This document shows positions 8,386-58,000 of a stretch of DNA of 64,000 bases, one piece after another. Below the pieces are notes generated by a model. The model saw only the letters and a program-made list of their open reading frames with translations, searched no databases and had not been told where the DNA came from. Source of the DNA: Tricharina praecox (lineage: Eukaryota); contig NW_026250417.1 of the NCBI RefSeq assembly GCF_024521635.1, forward strand, positions 248,001 through 312,000, written 5' to 3'. Within the stretch, counting starts at the first letter, position 1. Each line of letters starts with the position of its first letter. A program made the position numbers and the translations under genes.

Positions 8386-10874
8386 TTTCTCTCTGTCTCT
8401 CTCTCGATCCATGCGAAGCTGGAGAGGAGATTGGGTGCTGATTTTTCAATTTTTTCTTCCACCTCCTCGGAGGAGGAGGAGTCACTCGGTCGGACCTCCT
8501 GGCCCTGTTCCTGGCCCTGTCCCTTCGGACGGACTGGGTGTTGCGGCGGCGGCGGAAGCGGATGCGTGTGTGAGTGGCGCCGAACCGAAGTCGTGGGCGC
8601 TGGGATTTGACACTGCTAGCGTGAATGCTCCTGCTGCTGGTGGTGTTCCTGCGTCCGCCTGTCTGGGAGGGGAGGTTGGTTGGTTGGTTGGGTTGGTTGG
8701 GTGGTAGAAATCCCGCGGGTGCGCACCCAGGCTACTAGTACCTGTGCATAAGGGGATTGTTGGTGGCCGGGTCAGGCACCGGGTCAGGTACCGGGAAGGG
8801 GGAGGATACATGTGTATGTAGGCTCGTGCACCGTCAGACGGGCGTTCCGAGCTCGTCGTCGACTCGTCGCTCGTCGCTCATCGCCCGGACATCGAATCAC
8901 CGGTCCGGTCTGGTCGCTGCCTCCCCTCCAGCCTCCCCGGCTCCCATCCCAGGCTCCCAGCTACCGGAAGAAGTCCGGTACATACGTCGGTTAAATTGCG
9001 ATCGATTGACACCTACATACCTACTCTGCATACATACGGTACCTACTTCGATGCCCTACTCTACTCTATTGTACATGCTGGTCACTGGTGTGCATGGAGG
9101 TGGATCGTGGTAAGCAAGCGGTACACATGCCTGGTAGTTGAGTCGGCCCCCATGCTGTAGCCTGTACGTGCACGTAGTGAATCGAAAGTGTGGCTTTGAC
9201 CGGGGCCCGCATGGCCCACATGGCCTGCCGCCGTCTCCGTCCGACGTGTCCGGCGTGTCCGGCGGTGGGTTGCGGAGAGTCGCGGCCTCGGGGAGCCGCA
9301 GGCCCGCAGCGGAAGCGGCAGTTAACTTAGCGTCTGGAATACCCTGTGGGACAGGAGGAGGATGAAGAGGAGGAGTGATGCCGAGGAGTGAGGCCGAGCA
9401 GTGACGTGGGTTCTAGTTGAGACCGCCACATCGTTGTTGAGCGAGTGATGGCCAGTGCAAACTCTCGTCTCGATTGGAGACTGTGACTGGGCTGGGCTGG
9501 GCTGGGAGCGAGGCGGACCTGCTCCGTACTATTTAGAGTAGAGTAGAGCCCCTCAGGCTCGCGTAGAACATTCACAACTACAATAATGGTGTCTATAGTC
9601 GTGTTACAGTGACGGCATTCGGTGGTGACGAATAAAGATGCAAGAGAGAGATGGGAGCCTGGATGGAAGAAGGTAGCGTTCTGGAATCGGGGGCTTGCGG
9701 TTGGACAGTGGTACTGGTACACTAATGGTTTTTCGGTAGTTATTAGAACACGCGATTTACAGCAGCTTCCCGCACAGGGGGGAGGGGAGGGGGGCAAAAT
9801 GTTGGAAGATTAAGGGACTTTGCTCGACCAACCGAACAGGTATGTCCATTTCACGAACGCACGGCGTAAGGCCTGTGAGGAGTCCGAGTGATGTGCGGAA
9901 GGAGACCACCGACCACCGGTTCAGTTCAGTCCTCGGGATTTCCAAATCAGCCACAGGGTGGGGTGGTAAAGTTTCTCGGGGGTGTTTTTCGGAGCTGTCT
10001 TTCCCGTAACATGAAGTTGAATTCTATCTACTCTTTTTATTTGTTTAAGCATCATTGCATTCGACCTTGGTAGGGTAGATCATTGGATTTTATGGTACTC
10101 TGAGCGTTGCACGTTCCGTCACTCGACATACGAATCGCAGGCTAGGATGATATTTCATGATCGGCTGTACCTACTGTGTCTATGGTTGGTGCGGATAATG
10201 AGCGTGGTCATGGCAGGTAGCGGAGTAGGCGGATAGCGTGCGTGATGGGGGGGGGGGTTGTTTGTTCGGTAGGCAGACAATGAGCGTGGTGGGGTGTTTT
10301 GTTTGGTAGGCAGCGGCGCAGCATCGAGCCGAGGCGATAGAGCTTTCTCTCTACCCCGCGGAGCTGGCAGGAAAGGTCGGGAAGTTGGTGGTCGACATAA
10401 TCTAGTAAAGGCCGCATGCGACAATAAATTGATGTCCTCTCTCTGATAGGCTGTACGTCGTCACGGTCGTCTTTCTACCGTTCAGCCTCTGCTCTGCCTG
10501 AAGGGTAAATGAAGTCTCTCTGGCGGAGAGAGATCTGGAAACTGAGTAGCCCTGTAGGACTTCCGGAATCGCAAGACTGTTATTGGTGACGATGCCAGCG
10601 GCGTTCGACCCCCTGAGTGGGTCTTTGCCGTGAGCTATGGTACATATGATGGCTACAAAATCTCATCGCTGCCCCGATAAATCACACGACAGCTAACAAG
10701 GATGAATGCAAGCTATGAAGTTGGGGACCATGAATATTCCTCCCCACTGCGATGTCTTGGGTTTACTCACAGTATGTACAACCCATACACCACGCCACAC
10801 TCCTTCATACCATCATCCTTCGCCACCTTGGCCTCACTGAGCACCCAAGTAACCGACGAAAAACCAGAAGCAAA

Positions 10875-11193: not shown

Positions 11194-11320
11194 ATACTTA
11201 CCTTGATGCGACTTTTCTGGCTCAAACAGCAGCAAAGCTCCAGAGACACCCCCTCATTGCACAGCGAGGGTAGCGTGTCTCCGCAAAAGGTCTTCGGGCC
11301 TTTCGGCGTCGCAATTTTTG
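11194..11320 (+). ncRNA. U1: U1 snRNA-like copy 2 (subtype A)
   Basis: ATACTTACCTTGATGCG...CCCTCATTGCACAGCGAGGG...GTCTTCGGGC...GCGTCGCAATTTTTG; TATA degenerate (TTTAAAA). Confidence 0.85.
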
Positions 11321-12836
11321 ATTTCTTCCTCTGCTTTGATGAGATGAAGGTGTTTTCGTTGATGGTGCTGGGCCCTCTCTCCTTAGGAGGCCGAGACGTC
11401 AAAGAAAACATGTTACATCGGTGGGGACTCCCTCTTGCCCCCAAGACAGCCTACGGGTCACGGCAATATTGCTGTCTTTCATGCTTTTTTTCTGTTTCAT
11501 CATTAAGTGCGTGCGACCTTATCTAGTCATGGCAAAGATTATGATGTACACACGCCGTTTCCTTATCCATTTTCCAACCCGACCTCGAACAGTCCGCAGC
11601 AGCCCGTGATGGCTCCTTCGCCTAGGCACCCGGAATACAAAGGAAAAAACAAAAGCTCGGACAAATTCCCCTTCCTCTCCGACCATCCTGTCTCGTCCGG
11701 AGAGGCCATAAGGGGGCGGCATTGAGTCGAACAGAAGCTGAGGCCCCCCCTCCACCACCATATCCCCATCCCTTTCCAGGCTGACAGCGTCTCGCGCTGT
11801 CATCTCCTCTAGCTATTCCTCGTGTTCCCTTTGTGCCCACTCGACAGGGCACCTCACTACTCTACTTTATCATCTTGGTAAGACAGTTGGAAGAGGCAGT
11901 GGTTCGTCAGACCTACTTACCAATACACTTCGGTACTTGGGGAGTATAAATAGAAAACAGAAGCAGGTTTTGATTGCGACCTTTACTTCGTGTGATATCC
12001 CATAGTATTGAGCGCTGAGTGAGCGCGGTGTTGGACCCGACGTGACCAAACGACTTGCTCCCTTATTCACTAGGAAGCCGGTTGCCATTCTGTCTCATTG
12101 CTCAGGGGGCAGTATTGAAAACTGTCGGATACATTCTATCTACAAGCTGCTTTTTTTTTGTTTCATCATCGTAGCATTCGACCTTATCAGATCATGGCTG
12201 TATACACTCCGGTTCCACCCCACTGTCTCCGACCGGCGACCGCTGGCCGCGAGCTCGATGTGGGTTCCCTATTGCTCTACGCCCAGCCCATCCGTAGATA
12301 GAAAGAGAGACAGAAAGTAAGAATATCTATAAGACGCCGTTCACTTATATTCCATCACTCGTCATACGGATTGCAGACGATGATGATATTTCATGATCAG
12401 CTGTCGTCACGGTTGTCTTTCCTGCTTTCGCTCAGCCTCCCTGTCTCTACCTGGTCTGCCTGAATGTTGAATGAGGTCTCTCCGGCGTAGGGAGGTTTGG
12501 AAACTCATTAGCAGCCTGCGGAACTTCGGGAATGGCAAGACGGTTGTTCAAGGTGACGATGCTAGCAGGGGGTTCTACACTCGAGTGGGTCCTTACTGTG
12601 AGTTGCATACAGTATGATGGCTATAAAATCACATCGGCTGCCCGGATATGACAGCTGACAGAGACGGGTGCAAGCCATGAAGCTGGGGAGCTTGAATATT
12701 CCTCCCCACTGCGATGTCTTGGGTTTACTCACAGTATGTACAACCCATACACCACGCCACACTCCTTCATACCATCATCCTTCGCCACCTCGGCCTCAAC
12801 TAGCGCCCAAGTAACCGACGGAAAACCAGAAGCAAA

Positions 12837-12962
12837 CAAAAATTGCGATGCCGAAAGACCCTAAGATCATTCGCAGGGACTCGATTCTCGCAGTGCAATG
12901 AGAACCTTATCCCTGGAGCATTACTGCATGTTGAGCCAGCAAAGTCACATCAAGGTAAGTAT
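12837..12962 (-). ncRNA. U1: U1 snRNA-like copy 3 (subtype B)
   Basis: All U1 motifs present; stem I has some mismatches; TATAAAA upstream. Confidence 0.8.
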
Positions 12963-13150
12963 GAAGAAGAAAAGAAGGAGGAGTGGGGAAAGGAGACGGG
13001 GTTTTATAGGTGTTCTAGGGGGTCGATTTCGCCGATAGGAAGTAGCTAGCTAGGGGTTTTAACCGAGTGACACGCAGTGTAGCCAAGCTAGCCAGCAGAA
13101 AACACCTATAAAACCCCCTTTCCCCCACCCACCATTTCCTTTTCTTCTTC

Positions 13151-13277
13151 ATACTTACCTTGATGCGACTTCGCTGGTTCAACTAGCAGCAAAGCTCCAG
13201 AGACACCCCCTCATTGCACAGCGAGAGTCGAGTGTCTCTGCGAAATATCTTCGGATGTTTCGGCGTCGCAATTTTTG
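13151..13277 (+). ncRNA. U1: U1 snRNA-like copy 4 (subtype A)
   Basis: All U1 motifs present; TATAAAA ~45 bp upstream. Confidence 0.85.
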
Positions 13278-14079
13278 ATTTCTTCTGGTTATCCGTCGGT
13301 TACTTGGGTGCTCAGTGAGGCCGAGGTGGCGAAGGATGATGATGGGATCTGCGGCGTGGTGTATGGGTTGTACACACTGTGAGTAAACCCAAGACAGCGC
13401 AGGCACTGTGAAAAGAAATACGGCAAACGTCTATAATGCTATAGTTTTTGGCACTGTGGTCTAAAATGCCATAGTTTTGAACAAAAAAGTCTGAAAACCA
13501 ACCACCGCTCAAACCCACCACCACCCACCATGTAAACCCACTGTCTCGAGCGATGGAAGAGCTGTCGGCGAGAGGAGAAAGTTGAAGAGGACTCCTGTCG
13601 GCCTGGAGTTGGCAAAGAGCCCTCGCAAAACCATCATTACTAAAACACCGTCTACTTGCCAATGCCTCTCTAGACCGGGAAGCGGGTCGACAGCGAGAAC
13701 ACACAAGGGGAGAGATGATATAGATGTTCATCGTCTATTCTGTAGACTATGAGAGAGAAAGAAGAAGAAGAAGTAGACGACGGAGAGGGCAGGCGTCTCG
13801 CTGGCCCCGCTAACGTTGATGTTCACTAAGTACTAACCACATCCGCTTCCTCCCACCGACAAATTATATCGCTGGGACCAGCCGGGGCGACGGGCAAGGG
13901 AAGCCACATGGCCCGCTCGACGAAAGCTGGGTTGGACAGTGGTGTGGAAATGGAGTGTGTAGGGGGCGGATATTGCCATGACCTGCCTTCGGAGCAAGAG
14001 GGAGTCCCCATAGACGTAACGTGTCTTCTTCGACGTCTCGGCCTCCCGAGGAGAGAGCCCAGCACCTTCAACGAAAACG

Positions 14080-14231
14080 CCTCCACCAAAGTGGAGGAAG
14101 ATATCAAAAATTGCGACGCCGAAACATCCGAAGACATTTCGCAGAGACACTCGACCCTCGCTGTGCAATGAGAGGGTGTCTCTAGAGCTTTGCTGATCTT
14201 TGAGCCAGCAAAGTCGCATCAAGGTAAGTAT
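14080..14231 (-). ncRNA. U1: U1 snRNA-like copy 5 (subtype A, intact 3' hairpin)
   Basis: All motifs plus a post-Sm hairpin CCUCCAC-UUUG-GUGGAGG (stem-loop IV equivalent); TATAAAA upstream. Confidence 0.88.
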
Positions 14232-15847: not shown

Positions 15848-15975
15848 CAAAAATTGTGTTGCCGAAAGATCCGAAGATCATTCGCAGGGACTTGTGATTC
15901 TCGATGTGCAATGAGAACCTTATCCCTAGAGCTTTGCTGATTGTTGAGCCAGTAAAGTCGCATCAAGGTAAGTAT
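15848..15975 (-). ncRNA. U1: U1 snRNA-like copy 6 (subtype B)
   Basis: 5' arm, AUUGCAC loop, Sm site; TATAAAA upstream. Confidence 0.8.
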
Positions 15976-16064
15976 GAAGAAGAAAAGAAAAGAGGAGGAC
16001 GGAGGGGCGGGGAAGGGGGTTTTATAGGTGTTCTAGGGGAGTCAATTTCGCCGATTACCTACGT

Positions 16065-16412
16065 AGGGGCCTAGGGCTTGGAACTTGGAGCTTGAGAGCA
16101 GACGAGAAAGGAATCGAAGCTGGCCGGCCGACTTGCGAGCCGCGGGGTTGTCGGCTGCCAGCTTGCACAGCTGCTGTGTGTGGGACCCAGCGGAAACGAC
16201 GCCTTGGCGCGTCGTTTCAACCCGGAGCTGCGGACCTGGGTGAGACCGATGGCCAAGGAGTTGTGAACGGACTGGGGCTCGTTGAGACCAGCTCGGTTTG
16301 GAGTGTGACCGAGGGCGGAGAGGTTTGTTGTCATTCGGTTTGAGAGCGGGTCCTGTCTGAGCTGGGAGCGGGCATGGGAGATGCACGAGCGGCGAAATTT
16401 CGCCGACCTGGC
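16065..16412. repeat. ~350-bp module inside the U1 pair spacer; second copy (reverse complement) at ~51551-51890
   Basis: GGAACTTGGAGCTTGAGAGCAGACGAG...GGGAGATGCACGAGCGGCGAAATTTCGCCGACCTG matches the reverse complement of 51551-51890. Confidence 0.85.
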
Positions 16413-16802
16413 TAGACCAGATGTGGTGGGCGAAATGCTCGAGGGGGTCTTTTTTACTTTGTTGGCCGGTTGTTTGTTTTGTCATTGTCCGTCATCATCT
16501 GCGCATTCATATACTCATCTCGCCATTCAACTCGCGGGGTACTTGAGGTTCATCACCTGAAGAGCACAGGTGGCTCTTTTCTTTCATTGTCGTTTCTCTC
16601 TCTAGACAAATACAATCGGTCTTCTATATTATTAAACAAGGTTGTCTGAGGGTCATCACGTCTCCAGTGCTTCACTGCCCAAAGCACTGCCCGCTAATGC
16701 CTCCTCCATTTTGGCCGAGTGACACGTAGTGTAACCAAGCCTCCAGCAGAAAGCGCCTATAAAACCACCCCCTTCTCCGCTCACGGTTTCCTTTTCTTCT
16801 TC

Positions 16803-16928
16803 ATCTCACTGCATGCGGCTTTGCTGGCTCAAGAAGCAACGAAGCTCCAGCGGCAACACCTTCATGGCACAGCGAGGGGCGAGTGTCTCTGCGAAAGGGC
16901 TTCGGGCCTTTCGGCGTCGTAATTTTTG
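16803..16928 (+). pseudogene. U1: U1 snRNA-like copy 7, degenerate
   Basis: 5' arm replaced (ATCTCACTGCATGCGG), U1A loop AUGGCAC; Sm site and stem III retained. Confidence 0.75.
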
Positions 16929-17633
16929 ATTCTTCCTCCTTTTTGATGAAGGCGTTTTCGTTGATGGTGCTGGGCTCTCCTCAGGAGGCCGAGACTTCAA
17001 AGAAGACATGTTACATTGATGGGGACTTTCTCTTGCTCCGAAACTGTTTTTTGTTTACTGATTGATTGCATGCGACTTATCTAGATCATCGAATTATCCG
17101 CCCCGGTCATACATCCTCCCCTTTCCACGTCACTGTCCAGCTCGACTTTCATCGAGCGGCCCGATGTGGCTTCCCCTGCTTCTCCGCCCTGGCTTTTCTC
17201 GAAGATACATGTGAAGGAAATAAAGCTATGAAAAGAAAGGGAGGGAAAGTGGGAGTGGCCCCGGCTCCTCAACCTCGGCGCCCTCATTCTCCTTCTCCTC
17301 ACGCCTCCTCTCCACAATGTACCTATGCGAGGAGTTGGGTGGATTGAGTGGTATTTGGTTCGAGTATGTAGATTCGCATTGTTCAAGCGGGGCTTGGAAT
17401 CCAGCGCAAGGCCAAGCTCTCTCACATGTTATCACCCGCTCTACTCATGGTCCATCACTCCACAGCCCGATTGAATGTGATCTGCAGGGTCCGTTTTCAT
17501 CCCGCTCTTGGCAGCACGCCACAGCCCCTCCATCCACAGTTTTTCCGCGGCCATCCATCGCCACACCTCCGCACTGCAGTCTACCACTTCTCCCACGACC
17601 TCCACGACGACGACGACGCCAACGACCGCAACG

Positions 17634-44763: not shown

Positions 44764-46162
44764 GGCTGCGGTACTGGCTGAATAGGGATGTGTCGGTAAG
44801 GTGGTGTGGACGTGGGTTGGCGATGGAGCTTGGAGCTTGCTGAGTACTGTTCGAGTGGGTAGCCTTGGTGGGGCTTGGTGTGGGGGGAAGCCGCTCCATG
44901 TGGCTGTCGCCTAGTGTAACTGCCAAGTTCATTTTCTGTACTGGACAGGGGAGCTCACTCGCAAACACCTAAAAAATGCGAGTATCGAAACACACCATTA
45001 CTGCCTACTCAAGTGAGCAAGTCCACGTTTCCGTACATAAGTGCTTACTTGCTGAGTTGTTTGTGTAGCGAGTTTATACGAGAATACCCAGGTGGGTAGC
45101 AATCCTGTACATTGACAAGTTTTGGAGCTGTGATCAGCTTACAACGCCCGAATTGATACCCAATTGTAGTATAATTGATAAAAGTAAACCAACAAAAACT
45201 CCCTAAGTACTTGCTTTAAACACCAGCAAATAAACTTATCCTAGGTGTTTCCGGACATTATGGTTGCCGTGGGAAGTCGTGGTTCCGGTAGGCGGTAGTC
45301 CCGAGACCTATGGCTCGACCGATCACGACTATCTGAGAGGGTGGGGCGGGATTGTATACCGAGCTCTACGTGCCTCCTACATCAGCTTCCAGAGAGAAAA
45401 TGACACCACAGGACTTGACGGCGTTATGGACCAACGGGAGCGAAAGGGTCGGACGCACGTCGGTCCCGTCATCAGAGTACGGACGAGCAAAACGACCCTC
45501 TCCTACGGACTAAAGCATGAGGAATAGGCGGAGAAGGGGTCATTGTATTGATGGGTGAATTTAGATGCTTGGTTGCATACGAGAGGGCCAGGCCGTTCGA
45601 GATGAGGTGCATGCATCATGGGGCTGAAGTCACTGCTCATCTCGTAAAGTAGGGTGTATGTAGAGTAGACTGACGAACGTTCGACAGCTTAGGGTTGAAG
45701 GATGGCAGTGTTTGTGCTCTAGACACGTAGTCTAATTCAAGTTTGCCGCGCTGGGTACTCAGGAACGATGACTGGCGGTCGAGAGATCACTGCTCTGATG
45801 AATCCCGGAGGATGAGAGGGCTGCAAAAGGCTCAAGTGAAGTTCTTCATCACCACGATCGAGATGGTATTGCCGTTCGGATTCGTCGGGTTGGGCTCACA
45901 GCGTGTGTGTGGGGTCTCAGCATCAGACACCACCCATCGCGATACGAACGCTTGAAAAACTTGAGCTTCGCTGTCTCTGCCCCGTTGGCGCGTGCGGAAA
46001 GACTAGAGTACATACTCTAGATGACCTGAGCGAGAACTTCATCCGTCTTCAGAGCAAAAGGAAGTCCCCATCGATGTAACGTGTCTTCTTCGACGTCTCA
46101 GCCTCCTGTGGAGAGCCCAGCACCATCAACGAAAACGCCTTCATCAAAAAGGAGGAATAAAT

Positions 46163-46288
46163 CAAAAATTGCGACGCCGAAAGGCCCGAAGACCTTTCGC
46201 GGAGACACGCTACCCTCGCTGTGCAATGGGGGTGTTGCCTCCGGAGCTCGCTGATTGTTGAGCCAGCAAGTCGCATCAAGGTAAGTAT
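46163..46288 (-). ncRNA. U1: U1 snRNA-like copy 8 (solo, subtype A)
   Basis: All U1 motifs; its own upstream TATATAAA and a different upstream sequence; family 3' tail extends to ~46050. Confidence 0.85.
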
Positions 46289-46630
46289 GAAGGAGAAAAG
46301 AAGAAGAGAGTAAGAGACGGGAGGAAGGCACTGTTTATATAGGTGGAAGTCTTGGCACTATACCGGATCGGAGCTAGCGTCATGTCACCAGCAGTCACCC
46401 GCCCTTAGAATTCGAGAGCTAGCGCTCCCAGCCATAAATACTACCAATTTCACGTACAGCTTTAGAATTCATGAATCACCGTAGCAAGCACGCTCTTCTC
46501 AGAGTAAAATTGATTCCCATACATTTATGTAATATTACCGCCGTTTAAAGGAAATCAAGGCATCTCGCCTAAGTATCATGCACACATACCGGTAATCTGG
46601 TTCTCCATAGAGACTCCATGTGTCCTTTCT

Positions 46631-47696
46631 CTACCGCCTATCGCGATACTCCACATCCTTATGTCTCCTGTCTACACGTGCACGGTCTCTCGACTTTGAC
46701 CGTGACCTGCGCCGTCTGTTGTCATCGCGTCGGCGGTCCCGATGATCGTTACCGCCCCGTCCTCTGTCTCCGCCCTCGTCCATCCTGCGGTTTCTATCAT
46801 CTCTTCTCTCACCCGCCCCTTCTTCCCTATCCCTATCCCTTCGGCCTCCTCGAGCTGGAGGCGCACCTCCTCGCTCCCGATCCAATCCCTTCATAACTCT
46901 CTCAGCCGCGCTCTCGGCTATTCTCTCCCTTGGTTGTGCTTGTACCTGTGGGGCGTGCACTGAACCAACAAACTCCACTTTATCCCTTCCAGACTCCAGC
47001 TGCACCTTCTCCCTCGCCTCGCCAATCATGGCCTGGTTATATGCCAATGCCTCGACAAAAGCGTCCTTAGGGAACTTTGTTGGATCCCACAGATCAGACG
47101 ATAGATTGGTTGCGTATTGATCCTTTCCGGCAAAGCCTACAAACTCGGTCAACTTCTCCAAAAGATTCGGATTTCGCAATGACGACGAGCGAAGTAGCTT
47201 CTCGTTGAAATGCACGCCTTTCGTCTTGAGGTCCCGGAAGTGTGCGAATTTGGCCGCGAGTGGTGCCGGTGGCGACCCTGGTGGTGATGGGGGAATGGTG
47301 GGGATAGAGGGAGGCAGCGTGAGCGTGTGGATGAGGTTTCGCGAAGCCGTGTAAGGTGAAAGCGGTGGGCCTTGGTCTTCCTCGTCTTCGTCCTCGTCCG
47401 ACGGTGGTCGTTGCGGACCTACGATCGGGGCATCGTCTGTCGATGGTTGCTCATGTTCTGGCGACGCCTGAAAAGAACCGGGTGAATGACGACTGGAAGC
47501 GCCATCTATGGTCGTAGTTATTGGACCGGGGGAGAGGTTCTGTGACTACGAGTCCAGTATGTTAGTTGACAGCACGGCGGAACGGCTACGTAGGGTGCAC
47601 CTGTGGGGGAGTTGTTTGATAGGGCTGCTGTGGCACTGAAGCGGAAGTTGAAGGAGCTTCATCCTCGCTATCGCTACCATATTCGACGAGACCCAT
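46631..47696 (-). CDS. HCNGP/SAP30BP-like protein
   Basis: MGLVEYGSDSEDE, IPPSPPGSPP, KGVHFNEKLLRSSSLRNPNLLEKL...QYATNL..LWDP; one intron. Confidence 0.88.
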
Positions 47697-47903
47697 TGCG
47701 CGGTTGCTGAGTGCTAGTTACTGGTGTCGGGTTTGTCGTGTGCAACGGCGCGTCATCGCCGCGCTGGAGAGCTCCCGCAGTTGAGGTGATTTACCCTGTC
47801 GTGTTGCGGCTAAGCTTCGAGAGAACGTTCATGCATCACCCAGAGCATCAACAGTGCAACCAACACCTCTCCAATCCATCCTTCACATCACCATCCCATC
47901 AAA

Positions 47904-48876
47904 ATGTCGCTGTTTGCATCTCCATCGTATGCTCCTAGCGCTCACGCAGCTAGCGGTCCCCAGCAGCACGCCTTCAACCCGTTCGTTCCCCCCGCTTCCA
48001 CAGCAGGCAGCACTACGGCGGAGCTCTACTGACCACCCTCTAGCTACACCAATAACGGCGGTTCGATAATCGGCATCGCGGGAGATGATTTCCTCGTCAT
48101 GGCTGGCGATACGCGACACACCTCCGGCTACAGCATCAACTCGCGGACGGAAAAGAAGGTGTTCAGGCTCGGCGAAGACTCCAACTTGGTGCTTGCTACT
48201 GTGGGCTTCGGAGCGGACGCAAAGAACATCGCCGAGACGATGACGAGAGCTGTCGATGTTAGCCTTCAACCACCGCCGCAGTCAGACGGAAGCTGTTATG
48301 GGATATGTGCTGATACGCAGAGGCAACAGGACTTCAGATTCCAGCACAACCTGCGGAACATGTCGGTTACGGCGGCGGCGCAATTCCTTTTCACCGTCCT
48401 CTACGGCAACCGCTTCTTCCCAAAGTACGCCCACTGCATTCTCGGAGGTCTCGACAAGGATGGCAAGGCGAAGCTATATTCCTACGACCCTGTTGGATCG
48501 TATTCCAAGGAAGGAGAGAGGCGCGCTGCGGCGGGCGCGGCCAGTTCGTTGATCGTGCCGTTCTTGGATAATCAGGTAATGCCTCACTCGTGACTGGTCA
48601 TCGCGGCAATGAGGGGATTATTACCCTCATGGCCTGATTCCGGTTGACGCTAACAACCCGGTTCAGGTCGAGTTCAAGAACCAGTACGTGCCGGGCACTG
48701 CCTTCACCCAAGAGAGGCCGGTGGAGTATCTCTCAAGGGAGAAAGTCAAGATGTTGGTCAAGGATGCGTTTACGAGTGCTACGGAGAGACACATCGAGGT
48801 CGGAGATGGCCTGCAGCTGGTCACCATCTCAAAGGATGGCTACCACGAGGAAGTCTTTGATTTGAAGCGTGATTAG
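47904..48876 (+). CDS. PRE7: 20S proteasome subunit beta-6 (PSMB1)
   Basis: FNP|YTNNGGS..IAGDDF..AGDTR, LYGNRFFP, YSYDPVGSY, PFLDNQ|VEFKNQ, DAFTSATERHIEVGDGL...LKRD. Confidence 0.97.
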
Positions 48877-49553
48877 ACCAAGGTTAATCTAGATGACCTC
48901 AATGAAGTGCCTTTGATGAAGCCTGAACAGGCATGCAGTAAGATTTTGGCAGCCTGAAGATAGAACGTATCACTCAAAACTCATCCATCGTGGTCACTCA
49001 CCATGCATATCGCTGGTGGGTTTCGCCGTTGTGTCTCATGCGCGACTGGCGCCGCTCTAGATCGTCCGCGCTAGTAGCCCTGTAGATTCCCAGGCGGCCT
49101 TGCCTACTGCCCATAAGCACTTCATCAATCAGTCACGTAGATACATGAATACATTTGTGGGTAAGCCCGTGGACACACATACAGTACTCACTTCATGTAA
49201 AGTGCGCGAGCAGAAGGGATAGTTCTGAGCAAGAACAAAAGCCCACGCAAACTTATATGGTGTGCTTAACCGCCAGAAAATCCCCGAAATGGAGGAGGAG
49301 GAGGAGGAGACATCCATCCTACAATAGTACCTGACTACATCTGGCACAGAGCTGTGAGAGTGATCCTACTCCTGGAGCAGGTCGATAACTATAGCTGCCC
49401 ACAACAGCAGCAGCAGCAACAACACCATCCCATCCCACCCCCCCACCGCCCGCCATCTTCCCCAAGAATTTCCTTCGAAGCCTCGACTTCCCAAAGGAGT
49501 ATCCAAGTATCGACGCAGATCCCCAACTCCCCATCGTTTCCGTGGCGAGCAAT

Positions 49554-49680
49554 CAAAAATTGTAACGCCGAAACATCCAAAGAGATTTCGCAGAGACACG
49601 CGACCCTCGCTGTGCAATGAGGGGGTGTCTCTGGAGCTCTGCTGCTGTTTGAGCCAGCAAAATCACGTCAAGGTAAGTAT
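49554..49680 (-). ncRNA. U1: U1 snRNA-like copy 9 (subtype A, truncated just after the Sm site)
   Basis: 5' arm, AUUGCAC loop, Sm site; half of the spacer present upstream. Confidence 0.75.
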
Positions 49681-50069
49681 GAAGAAGAAAAGGAAACTGG
49701 GTGGGGGGAAGGGGCGTTTTATAGGTGTTCTGGCTGGAGGGCTTGGCGGCACAACGTGTCACTCGGTCAAGACGGAGGGGGCACTAGCGGGTAGTGCTTG
49801 AAAGACAGCTTTTGCAGCAGGCAGCGGCACAGCAACGGGCCATGGTGGTAGAGCTTTCTCTCGACCTGCGAAGCTGGCAGGAAGGTCGGGAAGTTGGTGG
49901 TCGCCATGGTCTAGTAAGACAGCAATATTGCCATGATCTGTCTTTGGAGCAAGAGGGAACACCCATTCCCCCTCTATGTAGCGTGTTTTCCTCGACGTCT
50001 CAGCCTCCTGTGGAAAGCCCAGCAGCATCAACGAAAACGCATTCACCAATTCAAAGCGGAGGAAGAAAT

Positions 50070-50196
50070 CAAAAATTGCGACGCCGAAACATCCGAAGAC
50101 ATTTCGCAGAGACACTCAACCCTCGCTGTGCAATGAGGGGGTGTCTCTGGAGCTTTGCTGATTGTTGAGCCAGCAAAGTCGCATCAAGGTAAGTAT
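50070..50196 (-). ncRNA. U1: U1 snRNA-like copy 10 (subtype A)
   Basis: All motifs; clean stems I-III; TATAAAA upstream. Confidence 0.88.
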
Positions 50197-50385
50197 GAAG
50201 AAGAAAAGAAAATTTAGTGGGGGGAAGGGACGTTTTATAGGAGTTCTAGGGGGTCGATTTCGCCGACGGAAAGTAGCTACATAGCTAGGGTTTTTGACCG
50301 AGTGACACGCAGTGTCGCCAAGCTAGCCAGCAGCTAACGCCTATAAAACCCCCCTTCCCCCCACCCACCTTTCCTTTTCTTCTTC

Positions 50386-50511
50386 ATACTTACCTTGATG
50401 CGACTTTGCTGGCTCAATAATCAGCAAAGCTCCAGGGATAAGGTTCTCATTGCACAGCGAGAATCGAGTCCCTGCGAATGATCTTAGGGTCTTTCGGCAT
50501 CGCAATTTTTG
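50386..50511 (+). ncRNA. U1: U1 snRNA-like copy 11 (subtype B)
   Basis: ATACTTACCTTGATGC...CAGGGATAAGGTTCTCATTGCACAGCGAGAATCGAGTCCCTG...GCATCGCAATTTTTG; TATAAAA at 50342. Confidence 0.88.
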
Positions 50512-50641
50512 TTTGCTTCTGCGTTTTCCGTCGGTCACTTGGGCGCTCAGTGAGGCCGAGGTGGCGAAGGATGATGATAGGATCTACGGCGTGGTGTATG
50601 GGTTGTTCACACTGTGAGTAAACCCTAGACAGCGCAAGCAC

Positions 50642-51200
50642 ACCGCCCGGACGCTCGGTGCGGATGGTGTCATTACCTTTCAAGACCCAGACTCGGAAGC
50701 ATCTCTTCGGGTGCTGCCCCGAATGACTGAGCCGGTACAAGATCCTGTGGGCAGAGGTTCGGAAGGGGACAGGGAGGGCCGAGGCTCGCTTCAAGATCCG
50801 AGACCTCTTCGCAGACGCGCGGTGCAACCAGGTCATCCTAGATTTCCTCTCATCCAATGATGTGGGCAGACGGGTCTTAGAGGTCGGTGAGGAAGATGCT
50901 GCAAGTGAGGTGTCCGAGTGAGAGCTTAAGGAGATATGTGGAGATGAAGCGAGAAGAGGAGGAGGAGGGCACTGAGGTTGAGGAGTCGGTGTCACTCCCG
51001 CTGTTCCTCTTCACACCCTTCTTCGTGGCATCTCCTGATGAAAAGTCAGGGTGCGGCAAGGCGGGGTGAGGAGCGGGCTTTCGTTTCCTAGCTTTATTTC
51101 CTTCACATGCACCTATTTTTGGGAAAAGCCGGGGCGGAGAGCAGGGAAAGCCACATCGAACCGCTCAACGAAAGCTGGGTTGGACAGTGGGGTAGAAACG
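50642..51200 (+). mobile_element. 5'-truncated, degenerate LINE (Tad-like) ORF2 C-terminus plus 3'UTR
   Basis: Across a frameshift and a stop it reads DARCGWCHY.FKTQTRKHLFGCCPE*...ILWAEVRKGTGRAEARFKIRDLFADARCNQVILDFLSSNDVGRRV, the CCHC zinc-knuckle end typical of fungal LINE ORF2. Confidence 0.8.
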
Positions 51201-51358
51201 GGAGGTGTATGCCCGGGGCGGATATTGCCATGACCCAACTTCGGAGCACGAGGGAGTCCCCATCGATGTACGTAACATGTCTTCTTCGAAGTCTCGGCCT
51301 CCTGAGGAGAGCCCAGCACCATCAACGAAAACGCCTTCATCAAAAAGGAGGAAGAAGC

Positions 51359-51482
51359 CAAAAATTATGACGCCGAAAGACCCTAAGACCATTCGCAGAG
51401 ACTAGATTCTCGATGTCTAACGAGAACCTTATACCTGAAGCTTTGCTGCTCGTTGAGCCAGCAAAGTCGCATGCATATAGAT
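51359..51482 (-). pseudogene. U1: U1 snRNA-like copy 12, degenerate (subtype B)
   Basis: 5' arm replaced (ATCTATATGCATGCGAC); U1A loop mutated (GUUAGAC); Sm site kept. Confidence 0.72.
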
Positions 51483-51992
51483 GGTGAAGAAGAAAAGGAA
51501 AAGAGGAGGAAGGGCGGGCGGGGACGGGGGATTTTATAGGTGTAGGCTTCCAGGTCGGCGAGATTTCGCCGCTCGTGCATCTCCCATGCCCGCTGCCAGC
51601 TCAGACAGAACCCGCTCTCAAACCGAATGACAACAACCCTCTCCGCCCACGGTCACACCCCGGACCGAGCTGGTCTCAACGAGTCCCACTCTGTTCACAA
51701 CTCCTTGGCCATCGGTCTCACCTGGGTCCGCAGCTCAGAGTTGAAACGACGCGCCAAGGCGTCGTTTCTGCTGGGTCCCACAGCAGCTATGCACAATCCC
51801 GCCGCTCGCAAGTCGGCCGGCCAGCTTCGATTCCTGTCTCGTCTGCTCTCGAGCTCCAAGTTCCAAGTGGCAAGTCCTAAGCCCCTATCTAGCTAGCTAC
51901 CTACTTTCTGTCGGCCAAAATCGACCCCCCCGGAACAGCTATAAAACCCCCCATCCCCGCCCGTCCTTCCTCCTCTTTTCCTTTTCTTCTTC

Positions 51993-52119
51993 ATACTTAC
52001 CTTGATGCGACTTTGCTGGCTCAAACAGCAGCAAAGCTCCAGAGACACCCCCTCATTGCACAGCGAGGGAAGCGTGTCTCTGCGAAATGTCTTCGGATGT
52101 TTCGGCGTCGCAATTTTTG
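51993..52119 (+). ncRNA. U1: U1 snRNA-like copy 13 (subtype A)
   Basis: All motifs; TATAAAA upstream. Confidence 0.87.
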
Positions 52120-52899
52120 ATTTCTTCCTCCGCTTTGAATTGGTGAAAGCGTTTTCGTTGATGGTGCTGGGCTCTCTCTTCTCGGGAGGCCGAGACGTCG
52201 AAGAAAACATGCCACACATCGATGGGGACACTCCCTCTTACTCTTTCCACCCGGCTGTCCCTGACCGCTGGCCGCGAGCTCGATGCCGGCTCCCTATTGC
52301 TCTCCGCCCAGCTCTCCCCGAGCGTCAACCTTCCCTGCTCGCTCCCCGCTCAACTCAAAAGAATGAATGAACGAAAGTATTCGTCAGTCAAACTCTCGCC
52401 CCGTCCAACTTCCTGTGAGCTCGATTACGAAATCTAGTTCCTCGTCCCTGCCGCCGTGTTCTCTATATACTCCACCGGCCGGCCGTCTCCTCGCCCGTCC
52501 TGTATCCTCTTTCTCGCCCTGGCTCTTACTGCGTCCCAGTCCATCGAGCTGCCTGTAGCCTGGGTGACCCGGCTGGGAGGGATGGGAAGGAAGAGGGGAC
52601 GAAGGCTCTCGGCGGCCTGTCTCCTTTCTTCCGCTCTCGCCACTCTTTCTACCGCTGCGGCTCTTGCTCCTTCTCTATGTGAGGACCGCCGTCGCCGCTG
52701 CTATGTCCGAGGTTTGGCTCGGGGTTTCTGGTCCGTCTTCTGGTCCCAGGGGGGGTACCCTTCTGCGACCCACGTCCGTGCTGTCGAGGAAACCGAGGAC
52801 AGCCGTAGTACAGTATTGGTTCGCGAGGAGATCCTCGATCTTGAATCTCCCCCCCCCCCCCCTCCCTTCCCCCACCCATCGTTTCCTTTCTTCTTCATA

Positions 52900-55766
52900 C
52901 CCTTGTAAAACAAGGGGGAGTTTTTTAAATAGTGGAGCGACTGTTGTGCCATGATTTTTTTTTCAAACCCGTAGGAAAAGTAAATACCACATCGTGATAG
53001 TTGGGAATTATACACATGTCAAATTATTGACCTATAAAAGCCACTCAAAACATTGTACATTCCGTGTTAGATTTACAGACGTGTTGCAAGTTTTTAACGG
53101 AGGGAGTGGATATACAGTTCACAGACTTTTCCCGTGAAAATTGGAAGCCGTAGTACAAGTGATCCCGATTATAGAGAGTTAAATGACCGGCAATTAGACA
53201 TATTTAAAGAATTACTTCGAGTTTTTTTTCAATATGTTGCAAATCTCTCCTATGTAGTTAAAATAAAGCGTTAAAGTGCATTAAAACGTTGCAGCATCGT
53301 TTTCTTGGAATTTTTGAACCATTTTTGAACCATTTTTGAACTGTTGAAACTTGGGAGCAAGAGTGCAACGTGTGAATATCAGAGATGAATCGGGACGCTT
53401 AGCCTTGAAACTAGGCTCGGGTTTCCTCGCTTATGCAGTATTTTTTCACATTGGTCTTGAAGCACTAAGCACATATGGATTTATATTCTACTATATATTA
53501 CTACCTACGGGGCCAACAGGCAGTATCCAGAGCGGGCCGGCAGGCTGGCACATACTGCTGCTAGCCCTGCTGCCACTGACCCTCGACTTGCTGGATCCAT
53601 TGTGGTGGAGAGATGGAGGGGCTGTCGGCGGGAGGAATGGTTGCGCCGAGATGAGGGGTTGTGTCGAGGGGAGGGTTGCGGCGAGGATATAGTTGTGGCT
53701 AGAAAAGATATAAGAGAGAGAAGCTCTTAACGAGAGTAGGAGTTGCGGCGGGAGGAGGGGTTGCGCCGAGAGGAAGGTTGCGCCGAGAGGGGGGGTTGTG
53801 CCGAGAGGAGGGGTTGTGCCGAGAGGAGGGTTGCGGCGAGGATATAGTTGCGGCTAGAAAAGCTATAAGAGAGAGAAGCTATGAGCGAGAGTAGGAGCTA
53901 CGGCGGGAGGAGGAGTTACGCCGAGGGGAAGGGAGAATAGAGTTGTTGCTAGAAAAGCTGTTTGAGAGAGAAGCTATCAGCGAGGGTAGACTCTAGAATT
54001 GCGGCCAGAAGTTGCGGCAAGAATAGAGTTGCGCGGAGAGTACATAGCAGTTGTGGCGAGGGTAGAGATGCAGCAAAGCTAGCTATAAAAGAGAGAAACT
54101 ATCAGCAGGAGTAGAATGGCAGCGGGAGAAGTAGCTATATGAGTAAGGAGATATCAGCGGGAGTAGCAGTAGCAGTAAGGTGGAGGGTGGGGTGGGGGGG
54201 GATCACAGAGGGGCCAGCCGGGCGAGCAGCAGTAGTGAGTGGGGGATATTCACAGCGCAGCCAGTACTGTATACACGTTAGCACGAGGGCAAATTCGAGG
54301 GCAAATCCAGTACTGTAACAACGGTAGCGAGGGGGCATTTCTAGCGAGAGTGCATTTCGTAGGCGATTCCAGCGCTGTATCAGCGGCGGGTCCAGCAGGG
54401 CATGTAGTAGTGGGGAGAGGGAAGGGCAATCACCATGTATTGCGCCGAGAGGAGGGGTTGTGCGGGGAGGAGAGGAGAATAGAGTTGCACCGAAAGTAGA
54501 CTTGCGGCGAGAAAAGCTATGAGAGAGAGAAGCTATCAGCGAGGGTAGATATGCGGCCAGAATAGAGTTGCGCCGAGAGTAGCAGTTGCGGCGGGGGTAG
54601 GAGCTATATCATATGAGCTATCAGTAAGAGTAGTAGTAGCAGTTGCGGCGGGAGTAGCAGTAGCAGGAGGGAGTAGGAGCTATATGAGAAATGAGCTATC
54701 AGTGGGAGTAGCAGTAGTAGTTGCGGCGCGAGTAGGAGCTATAAGACAGAGGAAGATTAGCGAGAGTAGTAGTTGCAGCACAGAAGGGAGAATAGCAGTT
54801 GTGGCGAGAGTAGAGCCTTGAGAGAAGTGCTATCAGCAGCAGTAGTAGTAGGAGCTATATGAGAGAAGTGCTATTAGCGAAAGTAGTTGCGGCGGGAGGG
54901 GGATAGCAGTTGCGGAGGAAGTAGTAGTTTCAGTGGGAGTAGCAGTTGCGGGGGGGGGGGAATAGCAGTTGCGGTGGGGGAGGGAGTTGCGGTAAGGGGG
55001 GTAATAGCAGTTGCGGTGGGGGGGAATAGCTGGGAGTGGGAATAGCTGGGAGTGGGAATAGCTGGAGGTGGGAATAGCAGTTACGGGGGGGGAGGAGTTG
55101 CGGGGGGAGGAGGAGATGTGGGGGAGGAGGAGTTGTGGGAAAAGAAGAAGAAGAAAAAGAAGAAGAGGCGGACGGCTAAGAGAGCATACGACCCCGCCAT
55201 GCCCGCCATGCCCGCCAACGTTGGTGCCGTCTACTAACCACATTCGTCTTCTCCCACCGACAGGAGTCCTTCACCTCCTCCTGTTGCCGACACCTCCTAC
55301 CACAGCTCCTGAGCCATTTCACGAATTGACTAAGTCATTCCTAGAGTCATCTCGCGGATTGACTCAGTCATTCCTGTTATTACTCCCTCCCGTGGCAGCT
55401 CGCTCATCGCTCCCCACACAGGGAAACAGTGGAAAAATGCCAAGACAACGCTTAAGTGAGCACCAACGATATATCTCGAACTTGTGTTTTTATATTTCCA
55501 CCAGTTCCTGTTTACTTAAGCGTTAGATCAACGTATGACAAATTCTCACATTTTCTGGCTTTTTGCCGAGTTTACAATTTAAAATGGGTGTACTGTCTAT
55601 CATCATATTATTTCCGCATCGTTTTACGTAGCTCACGTTATTCTAGATGCAATAGTTGCGGAATAGTTGGGCAATACCGCGGGGCCGTTTGTGAAATCTA
55701 ATGATCGCGTAACCATTTCCCAACCCACCGCTCACGTTTATAAAACCCCCCTTTTTTTTACAAGGG
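52900..55766. mobile_element. 2.87-kb TIR DNA transposon (TA TSD) inserted in U1 copy 14
   Basis: TIRs CCCTTGTAAAA... / ...TTTTACAAGGG; TA duplicated (52898-99, 55767-68); removing it restores TTCTTCATACTTACCTTG; no intact transposase seen. Confidence 0.9.
53640..55140 (+). repeat. Purine-rich degenerate minisatellite inside the TIR element
   Basis: Recurrent GAGAGAGAAGCTATCAGCGAG and TAGCAGTTGCGG units. Confidence 0.75.
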
Positions 55767-55917
55767 TACTTACCTTGATGCGACTTTGCTGGCTCAACGA
55801 TCAGTAAAGCTCTAGAGACACTCCCTCATTGCACAGCGAGGGTCAAGTGTCGCTGCGAAATGTCTTCGGATGTTTCGGCGGCGCAATTTTTGATATCTTC
55901 CTCCACTTTGGTGGAGG
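55767..55917 (+). ncRNA. U1: U1 snRNA-like copy 14 (subtype A), interrupted at nt 2-3 by the transposon
   Basis: TACTTACCTTG...ATTGCAC...AATTTTTG plus the CCTCCACTTTGGTGGAGG hairpin; its upstream T-tract is left behind at ~52860-52899. Confidence 0.82.
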
Positions 55918-55994
55918 CGTTTTCGTTGATGGCGCTGGGCTCTCTCCTCGGGAGGCCGAGGCGTCGAAGAAAACGTGTCACATCGGTGGGGAAG

Positions 55995-56390
55995 GGTCAC
56001 GCTCTCTTTCATGGCATATCCTGATGAAGCGGCAGGGGGCGAGGCGGGGTGACGAGCGGACTGTTATTTCCTAGCTTTATGTATTTCTTTGATGCGCTCT
56101 ATCTCTATCGCCGGGACCGGTTGGGGCGGCGGGCAAGGGAAGCCACATCGGGCCGCTCGACGAAAGCCGGGTTGGACAGTGGCGCACGCCCTCTTTCATG
56201 GCATCTCCTGATGAAGCGGCAGGGGGCGGAGCGGGGCGGGGTGAGGAGCGGACTGTTATCTCCTAACTTTATTTCTTTGGTGCGCTCTATCTCTATCACT
56301 GGGACAGGCCGGGGCGGCAGGCAAGGGAACCCACATCGGGCCGCTCGACGAAAGCCGGGTTGGACAGTGGCGTGGAAACGGAGTGTGTAG
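55995..56390 (+). repeat. Two tandem ~185-bp LINE 3'UTR-like fragments
   Basis: CACGC..CTCTTTCATGGCAT.TCCTGATGAAGCGGCAGGGG...CGAAAGCCGGGTTGGACAGTGGCG occurs twice and matches 51010-51195. Confidence 0.75.
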
Positions 56391-56537
56391 GGGCGGATAT
56401 TGCCATGACCCGTCTCCGGAGCAAGAGGAGTCCCCATTCCCCATCGATGTAACATGCCTTCTTCGACATCTCAGCCTCCCGATGAGAGAGAGCCCAGCAC
56501 CATAAACGAAAACCTTCATCAAAGGGGAGGAAGAAAT

Positions 56538-56664
56538 CAAAAATTGCGACGCCGAAACATCCGAAGACATTTCGCAAAGACATGCTTCCCTCGCTGTGCA
56601 ATGAGGGGGTGTCTCTGGAGCTTTGCTGCGGTTTGAGCCAGCAAAGTCGCATCAAGGTAAGTAT
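56538..56664 (-). ncRNA. U1: U1 snRNA-like copy 15 (subtype A)
   Basis: All motifs; TATA degenerate (TACAAAA). Confidence 0.82.
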
Positions 56665-56859
56665 GAAGAAGAAAAGGAAACGGTAGGTGGGGTGGGGGAA
56701 AGGAGCGTTTTGTAGGTGATTTGGTGGGCCGATTTCGCCGAAGGAAAGTAGCTAGGTAGCTAGGGTTTTTGACCGAGTGACAGGCAGTGCCGCCAAGCTA
56801 GCCGGCAGACAACACCTAAAAAAACCCCCTTCCCCCCACCCAGTTTTCTTTTCTTCTTC

Positions 56860-56985
56860 ATACTTACCTTGATGCGACTTGCTGGCCCCACAATCAGCGA
56901 GCTCCGGAGGCAATACTCTCATTGCACAGCGAGGGCAGCGTGTCTCTGTGAAAGGTCTTCGGGCCTTTTGGCGTCGCAATTTTTG
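56860..56985 (+). ncRNA. U1: U1 snRNA-like copy 16 (subtype A)
   Basis: All motifs; TATA degenerate (TAAAAAAA). Confidence 0.8.
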
Positions 56986-57256
56986 ATTTCTTCCTTTCTT
57001 ATGAAGGCGTTTTCGTTGATGGTGCTGGGCTTTTCGAAGGAGGCCGAGATGTCGAAGAAAACGGCATGAAGGATTGCGGCGTGGTGTATGGGTGTTGTAC
57101 ACAATGTGAGTAAACCCAAGACAGCGCAAGCAGAGTGTAAAGCAATATTCATGGTCCCCAACTTCATGGCTTGCATCCATCCCGTCAGCTGTCGTATCAG
57201 GACTCCCGGTGCGACCTTGTACGTAGCCACCATATGTACCGTAGCTTACAGTAAAG

Positions 57257-57470
57257 ACGCCGACGAGCGGTACAGCCAGGGGGTAGTTCCTAGATCCTAG
57301 ATTTCCTCTCATCCACCGATGTGGGCAGTTGGACCATGGAGGTCGCTGAGGAAGATGCAGCATGTGAGGTGTCCGGGTGGGAGCTCAGGGAGCGGGAAGA
57401 GAGGGAGGCGGAGCTGAGGCGAGAAGAGGAGGGGTCACGCCCGCTGTTCCTCCTCACGCCCTCTTTCATA
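57257..57470 (+). mobile_element. LINE ORF2 C-terminal fragment
   Basis: ADERYSQG..ILDFLSSTDVG...EEDAACEVSGWELREREE; homologous to 50810-51025. Confidence 0.75.
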
Positions 57471-57558
57471 CATAACGTGTCTTCCTCGACGTCTCGGCCT
57501 CCCGAGGAGAGAGAGCCCAGCAGCATCAACGAAAACTTCACCAAAGCGGGTAAGAAAT

Positions 57559-57685
57559 CAAAAATTGCGACGCCGAAAGGCCCTAAGACCTTTCGCAGAG
57601 ACACTCGACCCTCGCTGTGCAATGAGGGGGTGTCTCTGAAGCTTTACTGCTGTTTGAGCCAGCAAAGTCGCATCAAGGTAAGTAT
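57559..57685 (-). ncRNA. U1: U1 snRNA-like copy 17 (subtype A)
   Basis: All motifs; TATAAAA upstream. Confidence 0.85.
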
Positions 57686-57874
57686 GAAGAAGAAAAGGAA
57701 ACGATGGGTGGGAGAAAGGGGCGTTTTATAGGTGATTTTGGTGGGGTCTATTTCGCCGACGGAAAGTAGCTAGCTAGGGTTTTCGACCGAGTGACACCCA
57801 GTGTCGCCGAGCTAGCCAGCAGGAAACACCTATAAAATCCCCCTTCCGCCATCCACTGTTTCCTTTTCTTCTTT

Positions 57875-58000
57875 ATACTTACCTTGATGCGACTTTGCTG
57901 ACTCAAACAACAGTAAAGCTCTAGGAATAAGGTTCTCATTGCACAGCGAGAACCGAGTCTCTGCGAATGATCTTAGGGTCTTTCGGCATCGCAATTTTTG
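57875..58000 (+). ncRNA. U1: U1 snRNA-like copy 18 (subtype B)
   Basis: All motifs; TATAAAA at 57831. Confidence 0.85.

Follow-up and report, generated by a model that had tools for sequence, protein, structure and literature searches.

By 2015, the transposons reported at snRNA genes were only Keno and Utopia (U2), Dada-U1 and Dada-U6, according to PMC4640811. Keno, Utopia and Dada are described as inserting inside the snRNA coding sequence at a fixed nucleotide, with most copies linked to the target (PMC4640811, PMC3706591, PMC8869645); Utopia carries a restriction-like endonuclease and Dada is a DNA transposon. The Dictyostelium retrotransposons TRE3 and Skipper-2 integrate ~100 bp downstream of tRNA genes (PMC5006619), and SINEU elements (PMC4494074) join an snRNA head and a LINE tail that are co-oriented in one transcript and have no external promoter. 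A search of titles and abstracts found no report of LINEs at U1 flanks in fungi.

Here we analyze LINE 3′ ends that recur beside the U1 genes of the fungus Tricharina praecox. Like Keno, Utopia and Dada, these are transposon 3′ ends beside a multicopy spliceosomal RNA gene, precise at the 3′ end and variable at the 5′ end, with several lineages maintained in one array; unlike them, the tails lie 91-132 nt outside U1, and most copies of the family appear unlinked to U1. The nearest positional analogue is TRE3/Skipper-2: in both cases the genome is gene-dense, a retrotransposon sits in an interval of ~100 nt after a small-RNA gene, and unrelated lineages converge on that interval. TRE3 differs in having a Pol III target and a near-exclusive association, whereas the association here is partial and with a Pol II snRNA-type gene.

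The analyzed stretch (the window) comprises 64,000 nt of T. praecox (NW_026250417.1, positions 248,001-312,000), and all counts and the copy map given below are confined to it. Its DNA is compact, with intron-split housekeeping genes (eIF2B family, ATG5, Fe/Mn SOD, CAAX protease, a proteasome subunit and HlyIII), and a scan of the 64 kb found no tRNA genes. The HlyIII frame has 81% identity with that of Geopyxis carbonaria and 78% with that of Pyronema domesticum, which places the host among the Pezizomycetes.

An Rfam scan by E-value revealed 18 full-length matches to U1 snRNA (RF00003; 24-62 bits, E 5e-13 to 0.045) in two clusters, at 10.8-17.0 kb and 46.1-58.0 kb. As all 18 fall below the Rfam gathering score for U1 (69.5 bits; best match 62.1), a default scan returns none of them. 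We still read them as U1 genes, from their E-values, full-model cover, 5′ end, Sm site and compensatory changes. The canonical U1 5′ end is present in 16/18 (including the gene at 55766, whose first base is changed) and the Sm site in 18/18; there are two sequence types, between which double changes preserve pairing at 6 of 34 predicted base pairs. The genes mostly form head-to-head pairs, many ~190 nt apart, and array units repeat at ~1.0-2.0 kb. Two copies, 51331-51484(-) and 16801-16955(+), have lost the end that recognizes the 5′ splice site and have one derived replacement in common. The 3′ flanks fall into two classes, denoted A (exemplified by 50544-50641) and B (exemplified by 51241-51345 in reverse); the B flank is common to ~10 U1 copies, which are paralogous there with 65-85% identity.

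The upstream promoter region is present at 18/18 U1 genes, whether or not they are linked to a LINE. Since every copy has this same region, the U1 copies are a DNA-level gene family and not retroposed transcripts, as the preliminary description of this DNA had argued from the promoter travelling with the copies.

The LINE piece that follows the U1 gene at 50386 (copy a, Table 1) consists of the last ~95 codons of ORF2 and the 3′UTR; it is 5′-truncated and has one frameshift and stops. Translated 50622-50919 (X at two stops) matched seven fungal proteins among 128 candidates (E 1.8e-19 to 1.8e-5), one of them from T. praecox itself and bearing an RNase H domain. A search for longer proteins from one of these matches gave 21, including P0016 (1302 aa), which has Exo_endo_phos (PF03372/PF14529), RVT_1 (PF00078) and RNase_H (PF00075) domains. 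The window peptide aligns with residues 1182-1259 only, at the C-terminus of P0016 (45/78 identical, 58%; E 1e-27), so the fragment is a LINE ORF2 end with 3′UTR, as the preliminary description had it, and the failure to match that it had proposed as a test was not seen. The ORF2 C-terminus has a Cys/His motif after RNase H, and the frameshifted Cys motif of copy a starts exactly at 50642, so that its 5′ boundary against the A flank can be set at this position.

Judged from these alignments, copy a is most probably the 5′-truncated ORF2 end and 3′UTR of an APE-type LINE with RNase H, a candidate member of the Tad1/I-like clade. The window pieces resemble fungal APE-type non-LTR retrotransposons with RNase H in their ORF2 C-terminus, their 3′UTR with an A-rich tail, their heavy 5′ truncation and their high copy number. 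They are unlike full-length APE-type LINEs in that the window holds 3′ fragments only: none of its 224 ORFs of ≥100 aa contains an endonuclease, RT or RNase H Pfam domain.

A scan of metagenome contigs for relatives of this LINE gave 80 loci (418,684 bases) at 42 distinct places, mostly of one other fungus in three sister metagenomes. In 79/80 loci there is no frame of ≥500 aa on the + (match) strand, and one locus (L030) has such a frame; 31 ORFs scanned from the loci were flanking host genes or weak RNase H. The 3′UTRs of the relatives share a common plan, with a conserved ~50-nt terminal block followed by an A-rich tail. A strict regular expression recovered only six tails (four distinct), so we built a LINE-tail profile of 137 positions by iterated nhmmer from 124 tails of the other fungus. 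It places the true 3′ end of the LINE beyond the point assigned in the preliminary description: the tail of copy e extends to model position 134, and those of a, b and c2 stop at 99-102. Complete A-rich tails are found in copies e, t1 and t2, and several other tails lack the last 35-65 nt. Three features of LINEs are thus present (a conserved 3′UTR with A-rich tail, variable 5′ truncation and high copy number), and inspection of the junctions by eye for target-site duplications gave resemblances of 5-8 nt only, none convincing.

The profile has 12 matches in the window at E up to 10, ten of them at E < 0.02 (the profile spans in Table 1, other than that of copy g) and the other two at E 2 and 0.42. 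All ten (10/10) lie inside the U1 clusters and none in the remaining ~44 kb. When the search was restricted to the first 300 nt past the 3′ end of every U1 gene (18 genes, E up to 1), we identified eight tail matches, seven antisense to U1 and one sense, the latter being c1 behind the U1 gene at 55766-55918. The seven antisense tails end at +91, +92, +92, +106, +108, +118 and +132 from the U1 3′ end, and 7/18 U1 genes therefore have a LINE tail facing their 3′ end.

Table 1. LINE pieces of the window and the U1 features next to copy a, with the evidence for each.
Feature	Position	Strand	Evidence
U1 gene, type A, left neighbour of LINE copy a	50386..50543	+	Rfam 62.1 bits, E 5.4e-13; canonical 5′ end, Sm site
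A flank of U1 50386-50543	50544-50641	+	3′ flanking DNA
LINE copy a (alpha), ORF2 C-terminus to ~50925 and 3′UTR, last ~40 nt of tail missing	50642..51240	+	tblastn 50641-50933; profile 51122-51240, positions 2-102 of 137, E 3.3e-7
B flank, 3′ of antisense U1 51331-51484	51241..51330	-	65-85% identity between copies
U1 pseudogene, 5′ end replaced as in 16801-16955	51331..51484	-	Rfam 25.2 bits
LINE copy b (alpha), 3′UTR only, truncated-tail junction as in a; faces U1 14079-14231(-)	13875..13987	+	profile 13875-13987, E 8.7e-6
LINE copies c1 and c2 (alpha), truncated-tail junction as in a; face U1 56518-56664(-)	55998..56412	+	blastn; tail profile 56114-56182 and 56301-56412; junction 20-mer
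LINE copy d (alpha), ORF2 end only and shortened B flank; faces U1 57537-57685(-)	57294..57468	+	blastn, tblastn
LINE copy e (alpha), complete A-rich tail adjoining B flank of U1 pseudogene 16801-16955(+)	17044..17316	-	profile 17197-17047, positions 4-134, E 1.6e-11
LINE copy f (delta), ORF2 end and 3′UTR reaching model position ~75, where it runs into B flank of U1 51993-52150(+)	52244..52850	-	tail profile 52258-52311; tblastn
LINE copy t1 (beta), complete tail; beyond it a tail-like remnant of ~35 nt (11446-11480), then B flank of U1 11194-11353(+)	11485..11680	-	profile 11485-11620, E 6e-10
LINE copy g (gamma, like 10321-10429), truncated tail and ~35-nt remnant as in t1; faces U1 50041-50196(-)	49812..49947	+	weak profile match, E 0.42 (window), 0.023 (300-nt search)
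LINE copy t2 (delta), complete tail, in U1 cluster, off U1 flanks	12151..12295	-	profile 12151-12289, E 1.1e-15
LINE copy h (gamma), ~400 nt from 3′ end of U1 10842-11000(-)	10321..10429	+	profile 10321-10429, E 9.5e-4
LINE tail piece i, not at U1 flank	10035-10074	-	profile 10035-10074, E 0.013

Direct comparison of the junction region (50200-51560) with the window by blastn matched 13873-14286 (80%), 56185-56718 (76%), 17239-16787 in reverse (75%) and, as a variant with the ORF end, 57294-57462 (76%). The exact 20-nt junction of a, b and c, GGGCGGATATTGCCATGACC, occurs three times (13964, 51216 and 56391; 0.04 expected), and GGGTTGGACAGTGG has four exact occurrences and seven with at most two mismatches, against 0.62 expected. 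The recurring junction of a LINE end with an antisense U1 tail that the preliminary description had pointed out is therefore real, including the variant it had placed near 57257-57560, and it is wider than claimed, since copies f, t1 and g lie beyond its list. Searches with tblastn for fragments of the ORF2 end found 57294-57470(+), which is copy d, and 53004-52578(-), which is copy f with its LINE part starting at ~52850. Both junctions of copy a are also spanned by a 774-nt contig (50547-51320, two differences) from run X2, possibly the source sample itself or a sister sample.

Two kinds of candidate were rejected. An extension of the A flank (behind the U1 genes at 10842, 12806 and 57009) was considered as an old LINE tail and has no profile match even in a search space of 5.4 kb. 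The flanks at 50041 and 11353 were considered as empty sites; each of them contains a brief stretch resembling a LINE tail, upstream of which lies another LINE tail. The window yielded no B flank that is truly empty, the flank of 46134-46288 having only doubtful LINE-like remains.

The recurrence of LINE and U1 together could be taken for LINE 3′ read-through transduction, in which RNA of the LINE and the U1 cassette is retroposed to new sites, and this had been put forward in the preliminary description. The LINE and the downstream cassette do travel together in a, b, c and e. However, seven of the eight LINE-linked copies lack any A-rich 15-mer in the 500 nt that lie past the U1 5′ end, and the eighth scores only on a purine-rich run directly upstream of U1. 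The common downstream boundary coincides with the end of the promoter that all U1 genes possess, all copies lie inside U1 arrays and none at unrelated sites, and in metagenome run X1 the depth of the flank bin does not exceed that of the U1 bins. We regard transduction as very improbable.

Still less probable is a SINE-like (SINEU-type) or Helitron-borne U1 cassette. There is a superficial likeness to SINEU, with U1-derived sequence beside a LINE-derived 3′ tail: the U1 gene at 50386-50543(+) is followed after 98 nt by the co-oriented LINE 3′ part, as an snRNA head with a LINE tail. The comparison made in the preliminary description nevertheless misfits because U1 and LINE tail are oppositely oriented. 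At the recurring junction the two lie antisense, tail to tail, and the copies carry their external upstream promoter and 3′ flank, unlike SINEU, which has no external promoter. A Helitron finds no support in the Pfam hits of the 224 ORFs of ≥100 aa, among which there is no Rep/helicase family.

The alpha pieces a-e point instead to copying of DNA. Likeness among the UTR cores of a, b, c1, c2 and e amounts to 77-93%, and divergence within alpha is about equal in all parts of the composite (identity 64-87% in the LINE, 67-85% in the B flank and 70-86% in U1). The tails of a, b and c all lack the last ~40 nt, ending at position 99-102 of the 137-position model. Copies a and e adjoin an inverted duplicate of a long U1 upstream region (51550-51990 vs 16411-15978, 83% over 458 nt) and have the derived U1 pseudogene 5′ end in common. 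Smaller rearrangements are also visible: copy c contains a tandem duplication of the 3′UTR start of 188 nt (c1, 55998-56184; c2, 56185-56412), and copy d has an internal deletion of the equivalent of 51026-51268. The a-e pattern fits a LINE-flank-U1 composite that was copied, and its parts reshuffled, while the array recombined.

Against this, the alpha lineage has as many 5′ ends as pieces (a, 50642; b, ~13860-13875; c, 55998; d, 57294; e, ~17316), the variable 5′ truncation that the preliminary description had advised looking for. The 5′ flanks differ likewise: an A flank at +98 for a; unrelated DNA for b; for c, the sense B flank of U1 55766-55918(+), which adjoins the 5′ end of c1; for d, a 160-nt longer A-type flank with 6-nt microhomology; and for e, unique DNA beside the eIF2B-family gene. 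Five different 5′ ends and flanks are what independent 5′-truncated insertions would give, and they count against DNA copying, which would need a later rearrangement in each copy. The characters of copy a are also in conflict: its U1 pseudogene links it to e, its truncated tail to b and c, and DNA copying can accommodate this only by gene conversion or recombination.

Tails of other lineages occur at the same place. By their UTR cores the pieces fall into groups: alpha; t2 with f (83%); g with h; and t1 alone. Identity between groups is 34-75%, and the indel patterns differ discretely from group to group. The LINE parts of a and f have no blastn match to each other (best E 0.054), though both encode the ORF2 end, and across 242 nt of flank and U1 the two copies have 79% identity (E 2e-53); the 5′ end of f adjoins a U1 promoter fragment. 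LINE parts that cannot be aligned beside flanks that are 79% identical require two or three separate insertions, at least, at one spot. With at least three LINE lineages next to U1, one copied composite cannot explain all tails.

These comparisons show that the delta and beta/gamma lineages inserted independently within ~40 nt, in one orientation, behind B-flank U1 genes. Because different lineages did so within so short an interval, the DNA just behind these U1 genes, or a LINE remnant already there, acts as an insertion hot spot, the cause of which we infer. The suggestion in the preliminary description of DNA-level copying of a LINE-U1 composite is thus retained for alpha pieces a-e and replaced by separate insertions for the other lineages.

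Pure DNA-level copying would derive all tails at U1 flanks from a single old LINE insertion next to one U1 gene, with duplication and decay as the only later events. The paralogy of all B flanks, the visibly duplicated and rearranged array and the presence of some LINE-like remains at nearly every B flank are in keeping with it. It is contradicted by the a/f comparison, and the discrete indel differences between UTR cores speak against it, as does the grouping of f with t2 and of g with h, t2 and h not being at U1 flanks. We consider it improbable.

The opposite possibility is active position-specific targeting, in which the LINE would prefer to integrate, in a fixed orientation, at ~90-130 nt past the 3′ end of Pol II snRNA genes, and separate retrotransposition events would account for most or all of the copies, a-e among them. 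In a variant of this explanation, read-through transcripts of a resident copy could carry the U1 flank, anneal to other U1 flanks and prime reverse transcription, so that the truncated-tail junction is inherited. In its favour, the tails of at least three lineages, each tail to tail with U1, terminate no more than 40 nt apart; a, b and c combine variable 5′ truncation points with a constant 3′ junction; every tail of the window is inside a U1 cluster; and the distance resembles that of TRE3, ~100 bp behind tRNA genes (PMC5006619).

The relatives offer a mixed picture on this point. Rfam scans of 40/42 distinct places (all except L078 and L080) found one 5S rRNA gene, one tRNA gene and one U4 gene. 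The 5S rRNA gene (L008) directly follows a truncated LINE tail, and the U4 gene (L044) has a tail remnant 69-117 nt behind it, both of which would suit targeting; the U4 remnant is sense-oriented and of marginal significance (E 0.027). The tRNA gene (L014) is 1.5 kb away, and a tRNA scan of 60/80 loci yielded a single gene, present twice because one place is represented in two metagenomes. Against targeting, neither blastn nor an nhmmer profile of 16 window U1 genes found U1 in any of the 80 loci (418,684 bases), and the 3′ flanks of the relatives' tails have no obvious common target motif by eye.

Sequencing depth in run X1 bears on the same question. Summed depth was 120-320 in LINE bins (UTR bin, 317), 32 in the flank bin (51218-51318) and 20-90 in U1 bins, the depths being rough, since they come from soil-metagenome contigs placed at 80% likeness to which other fungi may contribute; X1 contigs that fit the window without any difference have a depth of ~4-9. 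LINE tails are thus ~10x deeper than the flank junction, which suggests that many LINE tails are not joined to the flank and that there is no large population of LINE-U1 composites outside the array. In runs X3 and X5, which we guess to be RNA, LINE parts are covered and U1 is not.

With no U1 in the 80 loci, the ~10x depth of the tails, and t2, h and i in the cluster yet off U1 flanks, U1 linkage of the LINE family appears to be neither near-exclusive nor that of a majority of copies. The same three observations speak against targeting, and the U1 pseudogene and flanking duplication common to a and e indicate descent at the DNA level. We therefore hold general targeting to be possible though unlikely. 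Its more specific form is a shade more doubtful: a fungal APE-type LINE lineage that is position-specific for the DNA ~90-130 nt behind Pol II snRNA genes (U1, and perhaps U4 in the relative), tail to tail, whose resident copies may home via read-through RNAs that include flank sequence.

The reading we prefer, with somewhat more confidence than doubt, is a U1 array with an insertion hot spot ~90-130 nt behind its genes, combined with co-amplification of one LINE-U1 composite. What each part is, where the copies lie, how they divide into lineages and that marks of transduction are absent are all observed; the order of events we infer as follows. An abundant non-LTR retrotransposon of APE type with RNase H has colonised the multicopy U1 array of this Pezizomycete, and a 5′-truncated alpha LINE would have inserted ~92 nt behind a U1 gene, tail to tail. 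The resulting LINE-flank-U1 composite may then have been multiplied and reshuffled by the processes that amplify U1 units: tandem and inverted duplication, unequal crossing-over, gene conversion and small deletions would together give the exact recurring junction. The delta and beta/gamma lineages inserted separately, within ~40 nt of the same place and in the same orientation.

Transposons in or beside multicopy small-RNA genes are models of ‘safe-haven’ targeting and possible tools for site-directed insertion. If array duplication is mainly responsible, the locus is an ordinary but clear case of a transposon fragment carried and homogenised with a gene family, and it also shows that an identical junction alone is no proof of retroposition. 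If targeting is true, the U1 3′ flank would be a novel target, the Pezizomycetes a novel host group and an APE LINE with RNase H a novel type of element, and the LINE would be a fungal Pol II-gene counterpart of Dictyostelium TRE3 and the first LINE reported for U1 gene flanks.

The window holds 18 U1 snRNA genes, in two clusters separated by ~29 kb, and head-to-head pairing is common among them, with ~190 nt between partners and a shared promoter region. The genes fall into two sequence types, distinguished by compensatory stem changes in 6 of 34 pairs. Purine-rich, diverged tandem repeats also lie within the second cluster (53626-54721; units of ~85-155 nt, 67-92% alike).

U1 features of the window and small-RNA gene neighbors of LINE tails in a related fungus
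Feature	Coordinates	Orientation	Remark
U1 clusters	10842-16955 and 46134-58032
U1 copies with replaced 5′ end	51331-51484(-) and 16801-16955(+)		same derived sequence
U1 promoter fragment	52861-52910	+	followed by a U1 5′-end-like stretch of just ~9 nt
Interval from the A flank of U1 13151-13309 to LINE copy b	13406-13860		~455 nt
U4 snRNA gene and marginal LINE-tail remnant	L044:749-1003	same	related fungus
LINE copy with truncated tail, then 5S rRNA gene	L008:3195-3625	same	related fungus

In two U1 copies the end that recognizes the 5′ splice site has been swapped for a derived sequence common to both. These copies are probably pseudogenes, kin through an inverted segmental duplication (51550-51990 versus 16411-15978, 83%). 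The promoter fragment directly adjoins LINE copy f, a truncated retrotransposon piece, at the latter's 5′ end and looks like a U1 gene cut short by insertion or deletion. The interval between the A flank (one of two classes of DNA downstream of U1 genes) and LINE copy b contains no LINE ORF signal and has no match in the rest of the window except for 31 nt (13831-13861 to 55232-55262, 87%).

At two metagenome-contig loci with relatives of the window LINE, a LINE tail or a marginal remnant of one lies beside another small-RNA gene. The U4 gene at L044 (Rfam 55.3 bits, above gathering) is followed 69-117 nt downstream by a marginal tail remnant (E 0.027), with a longer LINE copy 1.3 kb beyond; at L008, the 5S gene (93 bits) begins within a few tens of nt of the truncated tail. 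All 18 window U1 genes score below the Rfam gathering threshold, and default annotation would therefore overlook them.
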